Assembly (NCBI GenBank): GCA_965205265.1
Contig: CBDBGH010000003.1
Coordinates: 1,664,001-1,728,000 of the forward strand
DNA: 64,000 nucleotides
DNA from: Alphaproteobacteria bacterium
GTDB lineage: Bacteria > Pseudomonadota > Alphaproteobacteria > Bin95
Reading direction: 5' to 3'
Shown: piece by piece, positions 10,198 through 47,031 of the stretch
Position numbering within the stretch: the stretch's first letter is position 1
How the letters are laid out: each line of letters begins with the position of its first letter
Position numbers and translations under genes: made by a program
Notes under the pieces: generated by a model
Database searches by the model: none
The model's input: the letters and a program-made list of their open reading frames with translations, nothing else
Told to the model about the DNA's origin: nothing

Positions 10198-10208
10198 CCC
10201 GGAGGGCG

Positions 10209-11279
10209 CTACTCCCTCCGGCGGGCGGCGGGCCAGAGCATGCGGGCGAGCAGCGCCGCGCCGATCACCACGACGAAGAGGCGTCCGGTGTGGTGCGTCG
10301 CCACGAAGGCGACATCGATATCGAGCGAGAGCGCAATCAGGTTCATTTCAGCGAAGCCGCCGGGCGTATAGGCGAGGTGGACGGCCTTGAAGTCGAAGCC
10401 GCCCAGTGCCGCCACCAGCGCGGCGACGAGGAAGGCCACGGCCAGAAAGAAAGCGTAATACATGACCGAGACGGCCACCGTCCGCCCGAGCTCGCGCGGG
10501 CGGACGCCGACGAAGCGCGCCCCCGCCCCGCAGCCGATGAACACCTGGGCCATCGCCAGCAACTCCGTCGGCGGGCGGGAGGCCGTCAGGCCGCCGATAT
10601 GGGCGGCGGCGCTCACCAGCATCGGCCCGACCATCTGCCAGGCCGGAATGCGCAGCAGCTTCGCCGCGCCGCCGCCGATGACCGCAGACGCCGTGAGCAC
10701 GATCCAGTCCTCGAGGCTGAGGTCCGTCAGCCGCCACCCGCCGAGATCGGGCGGCGGCACATAGTCGGTGAGCAGCCGGTAGGCCGGCGGCACGATGAAC
10801 ATCACCATCAGGATGCGGGTCGAGTGGGACAGCAGAATGGCGCGCTCGTCCGCGCCCAGGGAAGGGCCGAGCAGCGCCATCTCCCCGAGGCCGCCCGGCG
10901 CGGCGCAGAAGAAGGCCGTGCGCCGGTCCATGCGCCCGACGCGGCGAAAGAACCACGCGCCGGCCGCCGCGCCGGAAATGGTGAAGGCGAGCATGCCGGC
11001 GAACACGCCGCCCCAGGTCACCAGCCGGTCCAGCACATCGGGTGCAAAGGCGGCGCCGAGCATGACGCCCAGCACGACCATCCACACGCGCCGCACGTCG
11101 TTCGGCATGTAAAGGCGCACGCCCGCCAGCGCTGCGACCGTGCAGGCGAACAGGCTGCCCATCATCCACGGCAGGGGGCTCTGGATCAGGGTGAACAGGT
11201 AGCCGCCGCTTGCGCCGATTGCGAGCGTCTTGAGAAGCAGGGGCCAGTTCCGCGCGAGCTCGCGCAATGCGCGCATCAC
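10209..11279 (-). CDS. AbrB-family duplicated membrane protein
   Basis: PLPWMMGS, two PGGxxEM repeats, many TM helices. Confidence 0.85.
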
Positions 11280-12043
11280 GGTTGGAACTGCTCCTTCAGG
11301 ATGCGCTCCTCCAGGCTCCGGTCGGGATCGAACAGCAGGTGCAGCTCCGTGCCCTCATCGCGATGCACCAGCACTTCGGCCGCGTCGCGCACTTCGGTAA
11401 AGTCGGCCACCGCGCTCACCGGCCGTTTGCGGGCCTCGAGAACGGTCAGCCGCACAGACACCGTGTCCGGCAGGATCGCGCCCGGCCAGCGCCGCGGCCG
11501 GAAGGCGCTGATCGGCGTGATGCAGAGCGACTGCCCCCGGAGCGGCAGGATGGGCCCGTGCGCGGAGAGGTTGTAGGCCGTGCTGCCGGCGGGCGTCGCC
11601 ACGATGACGCCGTCGCACATCAGCTCCTCCATGCGCACGACGCCGTCCACCTCGACGCACAGCTTCGCCGTCTGCCGCGTCTCGCGCAGCAGCGAGACTT
11701 CGTTGATGGCGCGCGCCCGGCGCATCTGCCCGGCAAGCGTGCGCGCTTCCATCAGCAGCGGGTGGAGGCTGACCGTCTCGGCGGCCCCGATCCGTTCGGG
11801 CAGGTCGTCCACGCGAAAGCCGTTCATCAGGAAGCCGACGCTGCCGCGGTTCATGCCGTAAATGGGCGGCGGGCGGTCGCCGAAGCTGTGCAGGGTCTCC
11901 AGCATGAAGCCGTCGCCGCCGATCGCCACGACAATATCCGCCTCCGCCGGCGGCCTGTCGCCATAGGCGGCCACAAGCGCCCGGCGCGCCTCCTGCGCCG
12001 CAGGCGTCTCGGCGGCAACGAACGCCAGGCGCGGATCGGTCAT
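11276..12043 (-). CDS. nadK: NAD kinase
   Basis: [37 protein letters not shown]. Confidence 0.95.
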
Positions 12044-12061
12044 CCCGAAGAAGCGGCCGCG

Positions 12062-13084
12062 TCAGCCGCCGGTCACGCTCATATGGCGCGGGACCGAGAC
12101 CGCGCCCCGCCGCCGGTCGATGATGAAATCGTGGCCCTTCGGCTTGCGCGAGATCGCCTCGCGCACGGCCTCTTCCAGCGGAGCGTCTTCCGAAGCGGCC
12201 CTGAGCGGCGCACGGAGGTCGGCTGCATCCTCCTGGCCAAGGCACATATAGAGCGTGCCCGTGCAGGTCAGCCGCACCCGGTTGCAGCTTTCGCAGAAAT
12301 TGTGCGTCAGCGGCGTGATGAAGCCGAGCCGCCTGCCGGTTTCCTCCACCACGGCGTATCGCGCCGGGCCGCCCGTCATGTAATCGGTCTCGGCCAGCGT
12401 CCAGTTGCGCTCGATCTTCGCGCGCACCATGGAGAGCGGCATGTACTGGTCGAGGCGGTCCTCGCCGATGTCCCCCATCGGCATGACCTCGATGATGACG
12501 AGGTCGAAGCCGCGCTCGCCGCACCATGCGATCATGGCGTCGAACTCGTCGTCATTGACGCCGCGCAGCGCGACCGTGTTGATCTTGACCGAGAGCCCCG
12601 CGGCCTGCGCCGCGTCCAGCCCGGCCATGACCTGCTCGAACCGGCCCCACCGGGTGATGTCCTTGAATTTGGCCGGGTCCAGCGTGTCGAGCGACACATT
12701 CACCCGGCGTACGCCGGCCTCGAAGAGCCCTTCCGAGAAGCGGCCGAGTTGGCTGCCGTTCGTGGTCAGCGTCAATTCTTCAAGCCCGCCCCCGTCGAGA
12801 TGGCGGCCGAGCGAGTGGATGAGCTGCATCACATTGCGCCGCATCAGCGGCTCGCCGCCGGTGAGCCGCAGCTTGCGCACGCCCATGCGGACGAAGACGC
12901 TGCACAGGCGGTCGAGCTCCTCCAGCGTCAGCAGGTCGCGCTTCGGCAGGAACGTCATGTGTTCCGACATGCAATAGACGCAGCGGAAGTCGCAGCGGTC
13001 CGTCACCGATACGCGCAGATAGGTGATCGCGCGCCCGAACAGGTCGATAATCGGCGCCGCGCCGCCCCAGGGGCCGCCGTCCAT
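12062..13084 (-). CDS. moaA: GTP 3',8-cyclase (molybdopterin biosynthesis)
   Basis: [30 protein letters not shown]-terminal MSVTGG. Confidence 0.97.
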
Positions 13085-13166
13085 CGTTTAGTGCCCTCCT
13101 CCACCCAGTGCGAAGCAATATAGACAGCGCGCGCGCGCCGTGCCAGCCCCGGCGCTTGCCGCCTGT

Positions 13167-13199
13167 CCCCTCCCGCTCGGCGGGAGGAGTTGGGGGAGG
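13167..13199. repeat. Single REP-like palindrome of the CCCCTCCC...GGGAGG type
   Basis: CCCCTCCCGCTCGGCGGGAGGAGTTGGGGGAGG hairpin between moaA and vapC. Confidence 0.5.
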
Positions 13200-13254
13200 C
13201 CCTTCCGGCGACGGGGCGTTCGTCGGGGAGAGTTTCGGGCGGGGAATGGCGCTC

Positions 13255-13683
13255 CTAATCCAGACGGCGCATTCGCAACCCGTCGAACCGTTCGAAGTCG
13301 CGGTCGTTCGTCAGGACCTCATCCACGCCATGCTCGCGGCACAGGGCGACGATCTGCGCATCGAACATCAGGTTGCCGCGCGCATCGGCTTCGTGCGCCA
13401 CCGCGAGAAGGCGGTCGATGAACGCCCCGCCCGGCCGCACGACCTCGCAAGTGGGAGCGGCAACGAGTCCTTCGATGAAAGCGGCCGCCTGCGCAATGCT
13501 CGACGGTGGGCTGAATACGCGCTTGTGCGTAACGACCCGCATAAACTCGGTGACGCAAAAGACCGGCAGCGCCCATCGTTCCGCGCCGGCGGCCAGAAAG
13601 CGGAGCTGCGAAACCGCTCTGTCGTGAAACTCGGTCTCGCCGCGGTGCGCGTAAATCAGGACGTTGGTGTCGACGGCGATCAT
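13255..13683 (-). CDS. vapC: PIN-domain toxin VapC
   Basis: IAVDTNVLIYA, conserved E, FDAQIVA, TNDRDF; 4-bp overlap with the antitoxin. Confidence 0.92.
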   Translation of the reverse strand: MIAVDTNVLIYAHRGETEFHDRAVSQLRFLAAGAERWALPVFCVTEFMRVVTHKRVFSPPSSIAQAAAFIEGLVAAPTCEVVRPGGAFIDRLLAVAHEADARGNLMFDAQIVALCREHGVDEVLTNDRDFERFDGLRMRRLD

Positions 13684-13925
13684 ACGCGGTCGATTACATC
13701 GTAAAGCGCGTCCCGGTCGGAGATGTCGATTTTCGGTGGGCTGTCCCCGGTCACGGTCTCCAGCCGCAGCTGGAACGGGCGCTCCGCTTCGCGCGTGGAG
13801 GACGCGGAGGCCAGCCGGGCGCGAAGCGCGTCCTCGACGAAGCTTGCTAGCGACACGCCGTCCCGCGCCGCGCAGGCCTTCGCCCGGCGCAGCACCTTTT
13901 CGTCCAGATTGAGCGTCGCTTTCAT
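13680..13925 (-). CDS. vapB: VapB-type RHH antitoxin
   Basis: MKATLNLDEKVLRRAK...SLASFVEDALR, C-terminal DISDRDALYD; coupled to vapC. Confidence 0.85.
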   Translation of the reverse strand: MKATLNLDEKVLRRAKACAARDGVSLASFVEDALRARLASASSTREAERPFQLRLETVTGDSPPKIDISDRDALYDVIDRV

Positions 13926-13965
13926 GGCCCGACCGTATCGCAGAAGAACGGCCAGCGAAAGCTCG

Positions 13966-14418
13966 CTACCGCTCCGTCCACCGCTTCCGCCGGCGGCGGG
14001 CGCGGGCGAGGCGGCGTTCGCGCTCGAGGCCGTGGCGCTTCAGGAAGTTCTGCACCGTGGCCGCATGGAACTCCAACCCCTCGGCGGCCAGCGCATCGCG
14101 CAGTCCGTACATGGAAAGCCCCGGGCGCTTCGCCAGGATGCGGACGATCCGCTCCCGCTCCGGCTCGATCCGCGAGGCGCTGCCGCCCATGCGCTCGCGC
14201 CGCACATGGCCGCGCTCGCGAAAGCGCTTCACCCAGCGGCCGATGCTGTCCCTCGACAACCCGAACCGCCGGGCCGCGGCGGAGATGCTCATGCCCTCTT
14301 CCAACACCGCCGCCACCGCCAGGCGCCGCAGCTCCTCGCCGACCGGGCGGCCCCGCACCCCCCGCTGCAGCAACCCACCCGTCGATTCGCCTTCACAACC
14401 TCGGATCGATTCCGCCAT
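13966..14418 (-). CDS. Stand-alone double-HTH protein resembling the IS630 transposase N-terminal part, no DDE domain
   Basis: RPVGEELRRLAVAAVLEEGMSISAAARRFGLS...RWVKRFRERG...MGG follows the IS630 N-terminal pattern. Strong RBS GGAGGAGG; Arg-rich tail. Confidence 0.75.
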   Translation of the reverse strand: MAESIRGCEGESTGGLLQRGVRGRPVGEELRRLAVAAVLEEGMSISAAARRFGLSRDSIGRWVKRFRERGHVRRERMGGSASRIEPERERIVRILAKRPGLSMYGLRDALAAEGLEFHAATVQNFLKRHGLERERRLARARRRRKRWTER

Positions 14419-14656
14419 CGCCGTTCCTCCTCCGGCCGCGCCCGTGTGGCCTCCGTAAGCACCTCAACCCCAATGCAGCTTTCCGGTCCTCCGGCCGCCC
14501 AGGCAGACTTCGACAACCGGCAGCCGGGCCGAGCTCCCCTCTTGTTGCCGCGGAGCGGCGGGTTCGCAGCGGAGGTCCGGAAAAAGCGGCTGGCGCGGCT
14601 CCGGAAGCCCATCAGATCCAGATCATGGCCCTTTCGCTCTGTCAGGGATAACAACG

Positions 14657-14689
14657 GAACATATATAGAACTTACGGGAAGAATGTCAA
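14657..14689 (-). promoter_or_regulatory. Sigma70 promoter overlapped by an alphaproteobacterial LexA (SOS) box
   Basis: Minus strand TTGACA-N16-TATATA. GAAC-ATATATA-GAAC (14657-14671) is the GAAC-N7-GAAC consensus and covers the -10. Confidence 0.75.
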
Positions 14690-14696
14690 GCGGTAG

Positions 14697-15869
14697 CTAC
14701 AGGGCGCTTTCCAGGATTTCGAGAATATCCCCGATGCTGCGCACCGGGCGCGGATTGGCGTGGACGAAGGGTTCGCGCATGGCCTGCTCCGCGATCTCCG
14801 GAAAGCGGTCCCGCCCGACCCCGACATCGCCGAGGCGCGACGGCAGGCCGAGCAGCGAGACAAGCTCGGCCACGAGGTCGGCCGCCGGGCGGTCCGGCTG
14901 CCCCATCGCCTCCGACACGACTCGCTGGCGTTCCGCCACCGCCTGCCGGTTCCAGCGCAGCACCGGGGCCAGCATGATGCAGGAGGTATAGCCGTGCGGC
15001 ACGTCGCAGGCGCCGCCGAGCACATGGCCTATGCCGTGGCTGGCGCCGACCGGCACCCCGGCGGTGACGCCGGCCATCGACATCCAGGCGCCGAGCTGGC
15101 TTTCGAGCCGCGCATCCACATCGCCGGGCGCCGCCTTCGATGCCGCGAGCGAGCGCGACAGAAGCCTGAGCGCCTGCAGATTCATGCCGTCGGTCCAGGC
15201 GTTGGCGCCCGGCGCGCAGAGGCCCTCTACCGCATGGTCCACCGCCCGGATGCCGGTAGAGAACCAGAGCCACTCCGGCGTATGCAGCGCGGCCCGGGGG
15301 TCGAGCACCACCGAAGTCGGGATCATATCCGGGTGCTCGTAGCCCTGCTTCTCCGGAATGCGCGTGTCGGTGCTGCCCTGGTAATGATAGTACTCGCCGC
15401 CGGAAAGCGTTGTCGGCACGGCGATCTGGCCGATATCGGGCCCCCGGAACTCCGGTTTCGTCTTCGTGCCGTCCGGCGCTACGACGGTGCGGAACGGTTC
15501 CATGTCGTCCACGGTTTCGAGCCCGTGCGCCAGCGCCAGCCGCGCCATCTTGCCGACGCCGGAAGCGGAACTGCCGCCGACGGTGACGATCAGGTCCGCC
15601 TTCGCCGCGCGGGCTTCGCGCGCCGCCGCGATCACGGTTTCCCGGTGGACATGGGCCGGAATGCCTTCGAACAGCCCGGCCGCGCGGTTTCCGAGGCCTC
15701 TGCGAATCTCCGAGACGACATCGCTCTCGCGGTTCAGCGTCCGGCTCACGATGAGGAAGACGCGCTCCGCCCCGAGCCGGCCCGCCTCCTCCGCCACGAC
15801 CTCCGCCGCGGGCCGTCCCCACACGACCCTCTGCATCCGCGAGAACACGACCTGGCCTGCCTTCGCCAT
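14697..15869 (-). CDS. Iron-containing alcohol dehydrogenase / maleylacetate reductase family
   Basis: VPTTLSGGE, RAVDHAVE, SHGIGH, VPHG. Confidence 0.88.
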   Translation of the reverse strand: MAKAGQVVFSRMQRVVWGRPAAEVVAEEAGRLGAERVFLIVSRTLNRESDVVSEIRRGLGNRAAGLFEGIPAHVHRETVIAAAREARAAKADLIVTVGGSSASGVGKMARLALAHGLETVDDMEPFRTVVAPDGTKTKPEFRGPDIGQIAVPTTLSGGEYYHYQGSTDTRIPEKQGYEHPDMIPTSVVLDPRAALHTPEWLWFSTGIRAVDHAVEGLCAPGANAWTDGMNLQALRLLSRSLAASKAAPGDVDARLESQLGAWMSMAGVTAGVPVGASHGIGHVLGGACDVPHGYTSCIMLAPVLRWNRQAVAERQRVVSEAMGQPDRPAADLVAELVSLLGLPSRLGDVGVGRDRFPEIAEQAMREPFVHANPRPVRSIGDILEILESAL

Positions 15870-15872
15870 GCC

Positions 15873-16583
15873 TCAGCCCCTCCCAAGCGCAATGCGCCAG
15901 CCCCTGAACCGCAACGGCTCGGCGGCGCGCGAATCGGAGAGATCGTAGCCCAGCCGGTCGAGTTTTCGGATATAGCCGCGTGTCAGCGCCGCGAGCGCGC
16001 GCCCGTAGCTGTCGCGGGCGGGCGCCAGAAGCGCCGCGGCCCGTTCCGCAACGGCGCGCGGCTCGGCGCCTTCGGGCAATGTCCAGCCGAAGAAGGCGGC
16101 GGCGCGCAGCCAGCCGACAAGCGCCCAGGCCGTGCCGGTATCCTCGCTGCCTGCCCGTCCGCTGACGATCTGCCCGGCAAGCGCCGCGAGCGTTCCGCCC
16201 GTCTCCCGCGCATAAGCCGGCAGGTCCGCGGGCGGCGTGGTTTCGAGATCCAGTTCCCGCGCATCGATAAGGCGGCGGAAGCGGTCCTCCGGCAAATCGT
16301 GATCGCGGATGGCGGCGGCCAGCGGCTGAAGCACGGCGTGGCGGCGCTCCCGCCCCAGGGCAGCTTCGTCGAGCGCATCGCGCCACCATTGCAGCCGCAT
16401 GGCGCCGAGAACCGGCTCGCCCGCGGTCTCGCGCAGCTGCGCCACTTCGAGATTGAAGGCGTGCAAGGCGTACAGGGCCGGGCGGGCCTCCGCCGGCTGG
16501 AAGGCAATGACGGCCGCGCGGTCCGGGTCGAAACGGCTGACCCGGTCCCGGCAATAGGCAGCGTCGTCATTCGATTCGGCCAT
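15873..16583 (-). CDS. Squalene/phytoene synthase family protein (NDUFAF6-like)
   Basis: FDPDR, ALYALHAFNLE, MRLQWWRDAL. Confidence 0.85.
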   Translation of the reverse strand: MAESNDDAAYCRDRVSRFDPDRAAVIAFQPAEARPALYALHAFNLEVAQLRETAGEPVLGAMRLQWWRDALDEAALGRERRHAVLQPLAAAIRDHDLPEDRFRRLIDARELDLETTPPADLPAYARETGGTLAALAGQIVSGRAGSEDTGTAWALVGWLRAAAFFGWTLPEGAEPRAVAERAAALLAPARDSYGRALAALTRGYIRKLDRLGYDLSDSRAAEPLRFRGWRIALGRG

Positions 16584-44195: not shown

Positions 44196-46514
44196 TCAAC
44201 GCGGCCAGTCGTCCTCGCGGTAGAGGAACATCGGGCTGCTCCACGCCTGGAACCCGTCCTCCGTGAACACCGACACCCAGACCGGGTTGTCGCCCTTTGC
44301 CGAGAGCGGCACCTCCAACTCGGTCGAGAATTCCCGGCAGGAGAGTTCGTCGGGCAGCCGGAACACCCTGATCCGCCGCTCGAGGCCGCCCGCTTCCATG
44401 ATCCAGTCCTCGAGGCCGATCTCGGAGAGCGGATGGTCGAGCGCGCCCAGATTGCTGGTCAGGTGGAACATGCTGTCCGACGTCTCGGCGAGCCAAGCAT
44501 CGAAGCCCCCGAAATTGCCGGTGGTGATGGCGTCGAACACGACCGTGTCCCGCCCCCTCTGCTCCAGCAGCCGTTCCTTGTTCCAGGCATTGATGGGCTC
44601 CATGCGCAGGATCGACGCATGCTGGAAGCGCGCCCGGCCCTTCCAGTTGGTTTCGCGCCCGCGCCCCCTGTATTCCGCGCCGCTCCACAGCACGCGGATG
44701 CGGGAGCCGAGCGCGTCCGCGCCGTGGGGACGGAGCGTGCGGAACACCTGCGTGCCGTTGCGGACCTCGATCCGCTCGATGGGCGACTGCGTCACGACTT
44801 CGAGCGAGAGCGTGACCGCCGCATCGTCCGTCTGCGCGATGTCGCCCATCATGATCTCGCCGACCGGCTGCGGCGCCTCGCCCTCGAAAGCGTGCGGGTC
44901 GCGCTCGAAAAGCTTACCCCCGGCCCGGAACCGGGCGCGGACATCGAGATGCATCCGGGTGCCGGTGGTACCGTAGGTGTGACGGCGCTGGACCGCATCC
45001 ATGATGCCGTCCCGGCTCAGCTCCGTCGCGTAGAAGCAGGTGAGCCCCCCATACGCCCCGAAGGTCGAGGCGCCGGGGTAACTTGCTCCCGGCCGGCCCT
45101 TGTGGCCATCGCTGTTGCAAACCACGCCCGAGCGGTGGCCGAGGGGGAAGCCGTCGGTCAGCAGCCACTCGAAGGTGCCCCAGGCCGAATGGATCTCCAT
45201 TGCGGCTTCCCGGCACGGATCGTGGGCATAGCCGATGTCGGCGTAGCGGCCGCCCACATGCGCGTAGATGAAACAATCCTCGTCGGCCAGCATCTCGAAC
45301 AGGCGGTTGGCGTTGGGCGCATCCGTGTCGAGATCGGAGCGGTCGGTCAGCAGGGCATGCGAGGAGCGGTGGATCGGCCGGCCCTCGCGGCGGAAATACA
45401 CATTGCGGTCGCCGCCGACCGCCGTGTTGCCGGACCACTCGTAACCGGGAAAGGTGACGAAGCGGCCGTCCTGGTGGTGCTCCGCCGTCAACTGGTTCAC
45501 ATGCTCCCAGAAGGTGTTGTTGACCTGGAAGTCGTTGGCCTGGTGGGCGGTCGCATCGAGGAAGGACTTGTTGCGGGCGAAGTCGAAATACTGCCGCGCC
45601 GTGGTGATGCCGATGCTCTCGCCGCTCTGCCCGTGCAGGTCGCCCCAATAGCCGCCGAACGGCCCGTCCCGGACGACAAGCGGATGGGATTCCGCCGCAA
45701 TCGTCCCGTCTTCGCCTCGCACAACGATGCGCAATATGCCCGGCTCGCTCACCGAGAGGCCCTCGAAACAGACCGATTTGCGGCCGAGCGGATAGTCCAC
45801 TTCGGCCGGCAGCCCGGATACCGGCATGGTGCTGTCCAGCGTGAACCGCCCGCTCGCCCGGTCCGTCGGGTTGCCCCAGACATCCTCCGCCTTCAGGCCG
45901 AACTGGAACGTCTCGCCGGGCCGGCGGAGCGACGGCAGCACCGCGCGCCAGCAGACCGGCGGCCCGGGCACGACGGAAATGGCCGGCGACTCCGGAATGG
46001 GCACATGGTGGCCGACGGCGCAGACATCGGCGAGGACGCGGAACTGGAAGTCCATCTCCACCATGGTCTGCATCCGCATGCCGGGGGATCCGCCGGAGGT
46101 GTCCCCGAAGGTGATGTGGATGCTGTCGCCCTCGCGCAGGAAACCGCCCATGACATGCGCCGTCAGCGCCTTCCAGCGGGGCCTGGGCGCGCCGTGCGAA
46201 ACATAGGACAGCCGGATCGGCACCCCCTTGCTGGAGCGCGCCGTGACATAGTTGTAGCCGGCGGGATCGTCCATCTGGAGCCCGCCCCAGTCCCCGAGGG
46301 AGCGGAACGAGACCCGGATGCTGCCGGTATCGTCGAGGCCGTAGCGCCCGACGGTATAGACCAGCTCGAATGTCTGGAGGCTGCGCACCTCGACCGGGTC
46401 GTTCGGGCGCAGTTCGGCATAGCCGTAGAGCACCGGGTCGGCGCCCGGCTGCACCGCCGGCCACGCCTCGCCCATCATCTCGTCCGCAAGCGGCCCGTCC
46501 CTGAATTCCTTCAT
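44196..46514 (-). CDS. DUF3604 PHP-fold putative metallohydrolase
   Basis: WGDLHGQS, PGYEWSG, EIHSAWG, NSDGHKGRPG, RRHTYGTTG, AWSSP. Confidence 0.82.
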   Translation of the reverse strand: MKEFRDGPLADEMMGEAWPAVQPGADPVLYGYAELRPNDPVEVRSLQTFELVYTVGRYGLDDTGSIRVSFRSLGDWGGLQMDDPAGYNYVTARSSKGVPIRLSYVSHGAPRPRWKALTAHVMGGFLREGDSIHITFGDTSGGSPGMRMQTMVEMDFQFRVLADVCAVGHHVPIPESPAISVVPGPPVCWRAVLPSLRRPGETFQFGLKAEDVWGNPTDRASGRFTLDSTMPVSGLPAEVDYPLGRKSVCFEGLSVSEPGILRIVVRGEDGTIAAESHPLVVRDGPFGGYWGDLHGQSGESIGITTARQYFDFARNKSFLDATAHQANDFQVNNTFWEHVNQLTAEHHQDGRFVTFPGYEWSGNTAVGGDRNVYFRREGRPIHRSSHALLTDRSDLDTDAPNANRLFEMLADEDCFIYAHVGGRYADIGYAHDPCREAAMEIHSAWGTFEWLLTDGFPLGHRSGVVCNSDGHKGRPGASYPGASTFGAYGGLTCFYATELSRDGIMDAVQRRHTYGTTGTRMHLDVRARFRAGGKLFERDPHAFEGEAPQPVGEIMMGDIAQTDDAAVTLSLEVVTQSPIERIEVRNGTQVFRTLRPHGADALGSRIRVLWSGAEYRGRGRETNWKGRARFQHASILRMEPINAWNKERLLEQRGRDTVVFDAITTGNFGGFDAWLAETSDSMFHLTSNLGALDHPLSEIGLEDWIMEAGGLERRIRVFRLPDELSCREFSTELEVPLSAKGDNPVWVSVFTEDGFQAWSSPMFLYREDDWPR

Positions 46515-46632: not shown

Positions 46633-47031
46633 TCAGGTCAGCACATCGACCAGTTGCGCCTCGACGATTCTGCGGTCCTGGGTCAGAAGCGTCGCGCCGG
46701 TCACACGGGCGGTTGCGACCAGAATGCGGCCCGCCGGGTCACGATGAAAGAAGTCCGGCAACGAAGCCAGTTCGGCCGCCACCGCCGGCGAGATTCCGTG
46801 CCGCCGCACCAATGGGCGCGCGACCGCCTTTTCCAGCCACTCCCGCAGGGGAATCGCCAGACGAATGCGGCCCAGATCGTGCAGCATCGCCACTTCCCAC
46901 AGCGAAATATCGGAGACCAGCAAGGGCGACTCCGCATTCGCGGACGCAATTGCCTCCCGCTGACGCCGGGACAGCCGGTCGCGGTCTCCATGCCACCAGA
47001 GCAATATATGCGTGTCCAGCAGCGCCTTCAC
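46633..47031 (-). CDS. vapC: PIN-domain toxin VapC, possibly catalytically impaired
   Basis: LLDTHILLW, SLWEV, HRDPAGR (usually DPxDR), TQD. Confidence 0.85.
   Translation of the reverse strand: MKALLDTHILLWWHGDRDRLSRRQREAIASANAESPLLVSDISLWEVAMLHDLGRIRLAIPLREWLEKAVARPLVRRHGISPAVAAELASLPDFFHRDPAGRILVATARVTGATLLTQDRRIVEAQLVDVLT

Follow-up and report, generated by a model that had tools for sequence, protein, structure and literature searches.

We analysed a 64,000-nucleotide (nt) stretch of the genome of an uncultured alphaproteobacterium (GTDB group Bin95; NCBI GenBank assembly GCA_965205265.1, contig CBDBGH010000003.1, positions 1,664,001 to 1,728,000 of the forward strand), referred to below as the window. 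The locus under study, which ends at position 13255, encodes a stand-alone double helix-turn-helix (HTH) protein derived from an IS630 transposase, followed by a vapBC toxin-antitoxin pair. A preliminary description, made from the letters alone, had reported a TTGACA -35 element, a LexA-type box over the -10, a leader of ~230 nt, a ribosome-binding site (RBS), an HTH open reading frame (ORF) of 150 amino acids (aa) and vapBC after 40 bp, and all of these were located as described. Promoter, box, leader and the three genes all lie on the minus strand, as follows.

14684..14690, minus strand: -35 element CTTGAC(A) (TTGACA at 14689-14684, CTTGAC at 14690-14685), recognised by its sequence and by its conservation in family promoters and lexA promoters.
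14668-14663, minus strand: -10 element CTATAT, with a 16-nt spacer from CTTGAC, lying inside GTTCTATATATGTTC.
14657..14671, minus strand: candidate LexA operator GTTCTATATATGTTC, a direct repeat of the form GTTC-N7-GTTC (GAAC-N7-GAAC on the plus strand) that encloses the -10 CTATAT.
14612..14626, minus strand: leader mini-ORF ATGATCTGGATCTGA (M-I-W-I-stop), 45 nt from the start of the box, with a counterpart in 64 of 73 family loci.
14419..14650, minus strand: 5' leader of ~232 nt, G-rich, its length varying among paralogues.
14433-14426, minus strand: strong RBS GGAGGAGG, 7 nt from the ATG of the HTH gene.
13966..14418, minus strand: stand-alone paired-like double-HTH protein of the IS630 orfA type, 150 aa (ATG at 14418, stop at 13966), with a basic C-terminal helix ending in RRRKRWTER.
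13680..13925, minus strand: vapB-type antitoxin, 81 aa, DUF6364 / ribbon-helix-helix (RHH)-like (DUF6364 29.0 bits against a cut-off of 27.3).
13255..13683, minus strand: vapC PIN-domain toxin, 142 aa (PF01850 PIN, 5e-15; TIGR00028, 101.7 bits against a cut-off of 73.6).

The sequence geometry, in which GTTCTATATATGTTC begins 12 nt after CTTGAC, places the box over the core promoter. From the end of the box to the ATG there are 238 nt, which gives the leader its length of ~232 nt. The gap from the HTH stop codon to vapB is 40 nt, and vapB and vapC overlap by 4 nt. The gene upstream (15869-14697, minus strand), judged by its sequence to encode an iron-type alcohol dehydrogenase-like protein, has its stop 6 nt ahead of CTTGAC.

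The HTH ORF matched the Pfam families HTH_23, HTH_28, HTH_29, PAX and HTH_Tnp_Tc3_2. Positions 1-124 of the NCBIfam IS630 transposase model NF033545 (299 positions) aligned to residues 31-145 of the protein (E 1.4e-16); the IS481 model scored equally (7.5e-17), and both matches were below their cut-offs. A family profile searched against the PDB retrieved the paired domain of Prd (2.7e-6) together with two Sleeping Beauty subdomains, PAI and RED. The AlphaFold model of the window protein (predicted local distance difference test score, pLDDT, 71) comprised two three-helix bundles and a C-terminal helix, with Prd, Pax5 and Pax6 as the top fold matches, followed by IstA, SETMAR, Tc3 and Mos1, all of them weak (best Foldseek E 1.3e-3). 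The profile and fold searches thus found the same two three-helix bundles and linker as in the paired and Tc1-mariner domains (Prd, Pax5/6, Sleeping Beauty PAI/RED, Tc3, Mos1, SETMAR), whereas the family is bacterial and stand-alone and carries an extra basic C-terminal helix.

The genome also harbours genuine IS630 elements, namely a 373-aa one-ORF type and a 1056-bp type with orfA and orfB, the latter encoding the DDE part. At least five near-identical copies of the 1056-bp type are present, and an intact one (locus L092, G000 C3:1504000-1507500) has TA-flanked ends and overlapping orfA and orfB. The orfA product of this type is of the same size as the family proteins (133-137 aa) and 37-39% identical to them, with the bipartite paired-like HTH and a basic C-terminal stretch, and a ATGATCTG(G)ACCTGA motif upstream of orfA is common to element and family. 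Near the end of the IS orfA there is a slippery run of seven A residues (AAAAAAA) that is likely a frameshift site; the window ORF, in contrast, does not have this run and ends in cggaagcggtggacggagcggtag. The family further differs from the IS in having no orfB or DDE domain, no terminal inverted repeats (TIRs) and no TA-flanked ends, and in carrying the conserved RWTER end, a long leader and its own promoter, in which a LexA-like box is found. Searches by tblastn with the DDE parts of the genome's own IS630 elements detected no DDE remnant at window positions 12000-16000 or in 75 family loci, and no inverted repeats were found at the module borders. A search for longer proteins revealed no DDE-bearing close relative, which is weak evidence, and one 296-aa protein containing HTH domains only. 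The window unit therefore has the bipartite HTH of IS630 and none of the DDE domain, TIRs or TA target duplication. The family is the orfA, that is, the paired-like PAI+RED double HTH, of IS630 elements without orfB. The preliminary description of a stand-alone IS630-derived protein that had lost its DDE domain and ends was thus borne out by the profile and fold matches, by the family's own conserved C-terminal tail and by reading frames that are mostly intact.

The same description had treated the locus as a single module, a view that could not be maintained. The genome (5.7 Mb) contains 16 such paralogous units, their proteins 50-78% identical to the window protein and nearly all stand-alone ORFs of ~140-150 aa, and 59 family loci were found in named alphaproteobacterial metagenome-assembled genomes (MAGs), several per genome. 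Forty relatives were searched at E<=1e-20. Of the 16 congeneric species among them, 12 carried family copies (1-37 copies each); none was detected in 8 genomes representing two further genera of the taxonomic family, nor in 16 genomes drawn from as many other families of the class. When 1.84 billion representatives were searched exhaustively with HMMER, no more than 2 matched at E<=1e-30; the number rose to 92 at E<=1e-10, and many distant matches were likewise short proteins. The window gene is one of hundreds of paralogous transcription units in the genus. For counts of upstream features 57 of the 59 external loci were used, leaving aside L061, where the match lies at the edge of the locus, and L069, which matches over 32 residues, and together with the 16 copies of this genome they make up the 73 family loci referred to here. 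In a literature search based on paper listings, with supplements outside its scope, neither this family nor an IS630-derived HTH gene under LexA control turned up.

Among the paralogues nothing was conserved 5' of the -35 element or 3' of the stop codon. A unit that moves as a mobile element with ends of its own was considered and rejected on the absence of TIRs and of conserved flanks. Logan contigs of four runs break within the HTH gene (window 14100-14200) and depth from other copies accumulates there, as expected because the family is multi-copy. Two orphan stubs consisting of promoter, mini-ORF and leader, with no HTH gene behind them, were found at C3:801971 (+) and C3:1028845 (-); one lies upstream of what is, judging from its sequence, presumably a luciferase-like monooxygenase gene. 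GC-rich palindromic units of the CCCCTCCCGC..GCGGGAGG type occur at window positions 13157-13200 and recur beside family copies, elsewhere as CCGGAACAAGTCCGGGCATGACG; they look like intergenic repeats of the repetitive extragenic palindromic (REP) kind.

The leader mini-ORF, which was not among the features of the preliminary description, comprises a start codon, one to three sense codons and a stop. It takes the form MT-stop in 43 loci, M-(I/T)-W-(I/T/S/V/L)-stop in 18, MTW-stop in 2 and MA-stop in 1, and an MV-stop in L057 fell below the score threshold. Its distance from the promoter is fixed, with the start 44-45 nt from the start of the box, while 106-444 nt separate it from the HTH start in the copies of this genome. 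Variants include ACC, ACT and ACG codons, a GTG start and a TAG stop, and a C follows the stop in 49 of the 64 loci. Across the genome there are 16 such motifs with an A/T-rich patch upstream, 13 of them at family copies. The mini-ORF is retained in a box-less subfamily with a different promoter (own8, own9, own13 and their relatives); no other element of the unit is therefore conserved as well. At the left end of the 1056-bp IS630, TA is followed by GAGCATGATCTGACCTGA, which is the four-codon motif of the family minus one G and reads as a two-codon ORF. The mini-ORF element was therefore inherited from the left end of an IS.

This origin allows a second reading, in which ATGAYCTG(A) is an untranslated relic of the IS630 left end and is bound as DNA or as RNA, perhaps by the HTH protein itself, in auto- or cross-regulation of the paralogues. 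Several features weigh on this side and against a translated minigene. The invariant part of the motif is the 8-mer ATGAYCTG, and a sequence shared with an IS end could be a protein-binding site. A Shine-Dalgarno (SD)-like sequence is present upstream of the mini-ORF (-6.3 versus -2.0 kcal/mol in controls), and in 40 of 55 cases a gap of 0-3 nt separates its end from the ATG, a spacing probably too close for efficient initiation. Most four-codon forms derive from one 6-nt duplication that regenerates the stop, so there were few independent events in which the ORF was preserved, and the distance from motif to HTH gene, long and variable as it is, makes direct translational coupling unlikely. 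Taken together, the proximity of the SD-like tract, the single duplication and the origin from an IS end would favour an untranslated site. On the other hand, every variant, including the GTG start, the ACT and ACG codons, the TAG stop and the shorter M-I-stop of the IS, keeps a start and an in-frame stop within two to four codons, and this survival of an ORF through all variants would favour a translated minigene. The motif is, moreover, missing from the right end of the 1056-bp IS630 and from a related IS630 type whose left end is similar in other respects, so it cannot be the part of the ends that the transposases bind in common. We hold the relic to be possible, as a tentative alternative to the minigene.

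A precedent for the minigene comes from the leaders of LEE1 (ler of enterohaemorrhagic Escherichia coli, EHEC) and axe-txe, where two-codon minigenes are reported to act in cis on the next gene (PMC3262186, PMC8708949). As in those systems, a very short ORF, here a putatively translated one, lies in a long leader. Unlike them, the ORF of this family is conserved across a paralogous family and derived from an IS end, and its distance is fixed to the promoter and variable to the gene.

The leader gave no indication of a conserved RNA structure. An Rfam scan of window positions 13200-14800 returned no match at E<=1, and hairpins after the mini-ORF in 53 leaders had a mean z of -0.09. In an RNAalifold alignment of 8 close leaders the covariation term was +0.49, with two-sided changes in 4 of 46 pairs, and so provided no covariation support. 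Folding of the window leader was no more stable than that of shuffled sequences (z +1.16). On the folding, hairpin, RNAalifold and Rfam results we abandoned the idea that the leaders share a riboswitch-like or attenuator structure, and the idea of Rho loading was dropped because the leader is G-rich rather than C-rich. The lack of a supported structure and the base composition both count against the model favoured below. Several leaders carry, just 5' of the RBS of the HTH gene, a variable number of GCCGCG-N4-CGCGGC hairpin units with a period of ~30 nt, five of them in the leader of L014 (about 2300-2480); these units could be protein-binding sites.

The direct repeat GTTC-N7-GTTC is given as the LexA motif of alphaproteobacteria in one report (PMC3323433). 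Both lexA genes of this genome are preceded by cTTGAC-N9/10-GAAC-N7-GAAC, with perfect boxes (GAACCAATATAGAAC and GAACTTATATAGAAC) over the -10, and the lexA2 box GAACTTATATAGAAC is the reverse complement of GTTCTATATAAGTTC, the 15-mer found at many family promoters. In all five congeners examined, one of which has no family copy, lexA is preceded by cTTGAC-N9-GAACCAATRTAGAAC, again with a perfect box over the -10. The second lexA paralogue (G000 C3:5303211-5303876, minus strand) is above the TIGR00498 cut-off and likewise has a perfect box; in the five congeners lexA is present once per genome.

There are 120 perfect boxes in the genome, 14 of which have A/T-rich spacers. Among these 14 are 5 at family promoters and 2 at lexA; a further one lies over the start of an MmcB-like repair gene adjoining mutY, and another precedes an S24 peptidase gene that is followed by an HhH-GPD glycosylase gene. 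In Caulobacter, mmcB is SOS-regulated. When 45 type-A family promoters were aligned, information content was 1.4-2.0 bits in the first GTTC, up to 2.0 bits in the -10 core and 0.9-1.3 bits in the second GTTC, compared with 0.1-0.6 bits in the neighbouring spacer; box positions equal the -10 in information. The cTTGAC -35 is kept in most of these promoters, with the same geometry as before lexA, and CTTGAC-N17-CTATAT is the rhizobial sigma-70 consensus. The family box thus has the direct repeat and the core-promoter position of alphaproteobacterial LexA boxes and is identical to lexA operators of the genus; it differs from the usual ones in that its target is a multi-copy transposase-derived HTH family and not a repair gene, and in that both half-sites are present in only about half of the copies. 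From its context and its conservation in paralogues and lexA promoters, the box appears to be beyond chance.

A number of observations speak against LexA control. A box with at most one mismatch is present in 8 of the 16 copies of this genome (5 perfect) and in 31 of the 57 external loci (15 perfect), and since it is kept in about half of the copies, LexA control is not a property of the whole family. Upstream of recA in this genome there is a one-mismatch box only. The promoters of distant stand-alone HTH genes read TTTACA-N17-TTGTTCTATAT with no second GTTC, and the first half-site may be inherited promoter sequence. The bare repeat GTTC-N7-GTTC occurs 3 times in the window against 1.41 expected, a number reached in 17 of 100 shuffles and hence not significant. 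Finally, a strict sigma-70 scan omits the window promoter, because no -10 hexamer at a spacer of 16-18 nt fits the A2/T6 rule.

These observations can be accommodated by supposing that GTTC-N7-GTTC is not a LexA site, and instead an inherited extended -10 (TTGTTCTATAT) or an operator of the family's own proteins, so that the genes would be constitutive or autoregulated rather than part of the SOS response. All copies go back to a single ancestor, and sequence that they share may reflect descent and not selection. However, descent within the family would have to be reconciled with the same direct repeat, with its A/T-rich spacer and its position over the -10, before both lexA genes here and before lexA in the five congeners, including the one without the family. 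It would have to be reconciled also with the other perfect A/T-spacer boxes at DNA-repair genes and with a second half-site that is better conserved than the spacer. We consider this explanation somewhat unlikely. The proposal of a LexA-box promoter in the preliminary description accordingly survives in its agreement with the lexA operators, and loses its generality where the box is degraded. The window box is probably a LexA operator, and on this evidence we place moderate confidence in LexA control of the window copy.

The pair downstream of the HTH gene has the features of VapBC: a PIN-domain toxin above the TIGR00028 cut-off and, directly upstream, a small antitoxin gene overlapping that of the toxin. 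Unlike classical VapB, the antitoxin matches DUF6364, its FitA-like RHH match being below the cut-off, and in contrast to usual VapBC pairs the two genes stand behind an SOS-type promoter and an HTH gene, and not only behind an autoregulated promoter of their own. The preliminary description had linked vapBC to the HTH gene as a partner, and we considered the corresponding possibility that the three genes form a dedicated SOS operon, with the HTH protein regulating vapBC or acting as its third component. No terminator was predicted at window positions 13000-15000, and only 40 nt separate the HTH gene from vapB. In addition, 3 of the 42 PIN matches of the genome lie directly 3' of family copies on the same strand, against ~0.1 expected by chance (a rough estimate). 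At L067, which belongs to another genome and another context, box, minigene, leader, HTH gene and vapBC recur with 86% identity to the window, and the homology runs from the box to the vapC stop, as if promoter to vapC moved as one unit.

Against such an operon, what lies downstream of the 73 copies is mostly an unrelated housekeeping gene, on one strand or the other. At L011, the orthologous locus, which has the same upstream gene and is 85% identical, the HTH gene is not directly followed by vapBC. At L067 itself half of the HTH gene has been deleted, with loss of the first HTH, and vapBC has been retained; vapBC therefore does not need the protein. A dedicated operon is thus very unlikely, and what is left of the proposed partnership is the excess of PIN genes behind family copies and the promoter-to-vapC unit of L067. 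We conclude that vapBC is, by this comparison of loci, a passenger of this paralogue lineage and not its defining partner. The pair is probably read through from the SOS-type promoter.

Two side observations concern these loci and PIN genes. Relative to the MAG contig of L011, the window block 10207-12565 (part of moaA, the next gene and an AbrB-family gene) is inverted, with the breakpoint just after the HTH gene. Another PIN match at window 46660-47022 (minus strand; G000 C3:1710660-1711022) lies ~250 nt from a GTTC-N7-GTTC with a GC spacer at 46401-46415.

Of the 59 closest pairs that yielded a Nei-Gojobori dN/dS, 58 had a ratio below 1 (range 0.17-1.19), with the caveats that pairs are non-independent and that bias in GC content at third codon positions (GC3) raises the ratio. 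The calculation was run without L011, L013, L015, L048, L049, L055, L057, L067, own13 and own15, in which the anchor motif was not located. We read these ratios as moderate purifying selection. Of the 150 matches listed from the relatives' genomes, 146 had no internal stop, and the C-terminal RRRKRWTER is conserved across the family proteins. Two points weigh against the model favoured below: ratios of 0.2-0.8 from non-independent pairs amount to merely moderate constraint, and the spread of 0-37 copies within one genus, as found in the congener search, looks more like that of a selfish or fast-turnover family than of a core regulator. Even so, it is most improbable that the copies are neutral, decaying and functionless orfA leftovers of an old IS630 burst, since that copy-number spread, the truncated copies (own15, L067 and L057), the two orphan promoter-minigene leaders and the pairs with dN/dS of 0.8-1.2 are outweighed by frames intact at 50-78% protein identity, by conserved length and C-terminal motif, by the conservation of promoter, box, minigene and RBS at loci that have all lost the TIRs and the DDE part, and by copies that are syntenic across genomes (own1/L015, own7/L043 and own5/L037 by downstream genes, own0/L011 by the upstream gene).

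The earlier interpretation thus needs to be recast: the locus belongs to a genus-specific, multi-copy family of domesticated IS630 orfA genes. About half of these genes have a probable LexA operator, the family has a conserved leader minigene, and vapBC is an occasional hitch-hiker. In the model that we favour, each copy would be a transcription unit of its own, with an alphaproteobacterial sigma-70 promoter (CTTGAC-N16-CTATAT), a leader, a strong RBS and a gene of ~145 aa, and the mini-ORF of 2-4 codons would sit about 28-30 nt into the transcript, ahead of the long, variable, G-rich leader. LexA bound to the repeat would block RNA polymerase, and its removal upon DNA damage would allow the unit to be transcribed. 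Ribosomes on the 5'-proximal minigene would then tune the yield of the downstream gene in cis, as at the LEE1 and axe-txe minigenes. The protein would bind DNA, candidate targets being sequences resembling IS630 ends, including the motif in its own leader. In the window copy, the later-arrived passenger vapBC would be read through from the same promoter. We lean towards this account as a whole, that is, a genus-restricted, multi-copy, stand-alone DNA-binding family derived from IS630 orfA, repressed by LexA and modulated by a minigene, with vapBC as a passenger, and regard it as somewhat better than an even proposition. A bolder form, in which up to 37 copies per genome without transposase or TIRs are induced by damage through LexA, gated by a translated minigene and bind IS630 ends in trans for immunity or control, with toxin-antitoxin pairs hitch-hiking, is unlikely in our estimation.

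To our knowledge, domesticated DNA-binding domains of transposases are well known in eukaryotes (Pax, CENP-B, SETMAR) and poorly documented in bacteria. The family described here is clearly delimited and genus-specific, and it has lost every feature needed for transposition while keeping and multiplying a regulatory cassette of promoter, probable LexA operator, minigene and RBS. It therefore offers a concrete system in which to study the role of a stand-alone transposase DNA-binding domain towards its host or its parent IS. Such work would reveal if transposon control is coupled to the SOS response in this uncultured lineage of alphaproteobacteria, and by what means an ORF of 2-4 codons, fixed in its distance to the transcription start, governs a gene that lies hundreds of bases further on. 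That vapBC pairs are enriched just downstream also suggests a route by which toxin-antitoxin pairs may gain damage-responsive expression.

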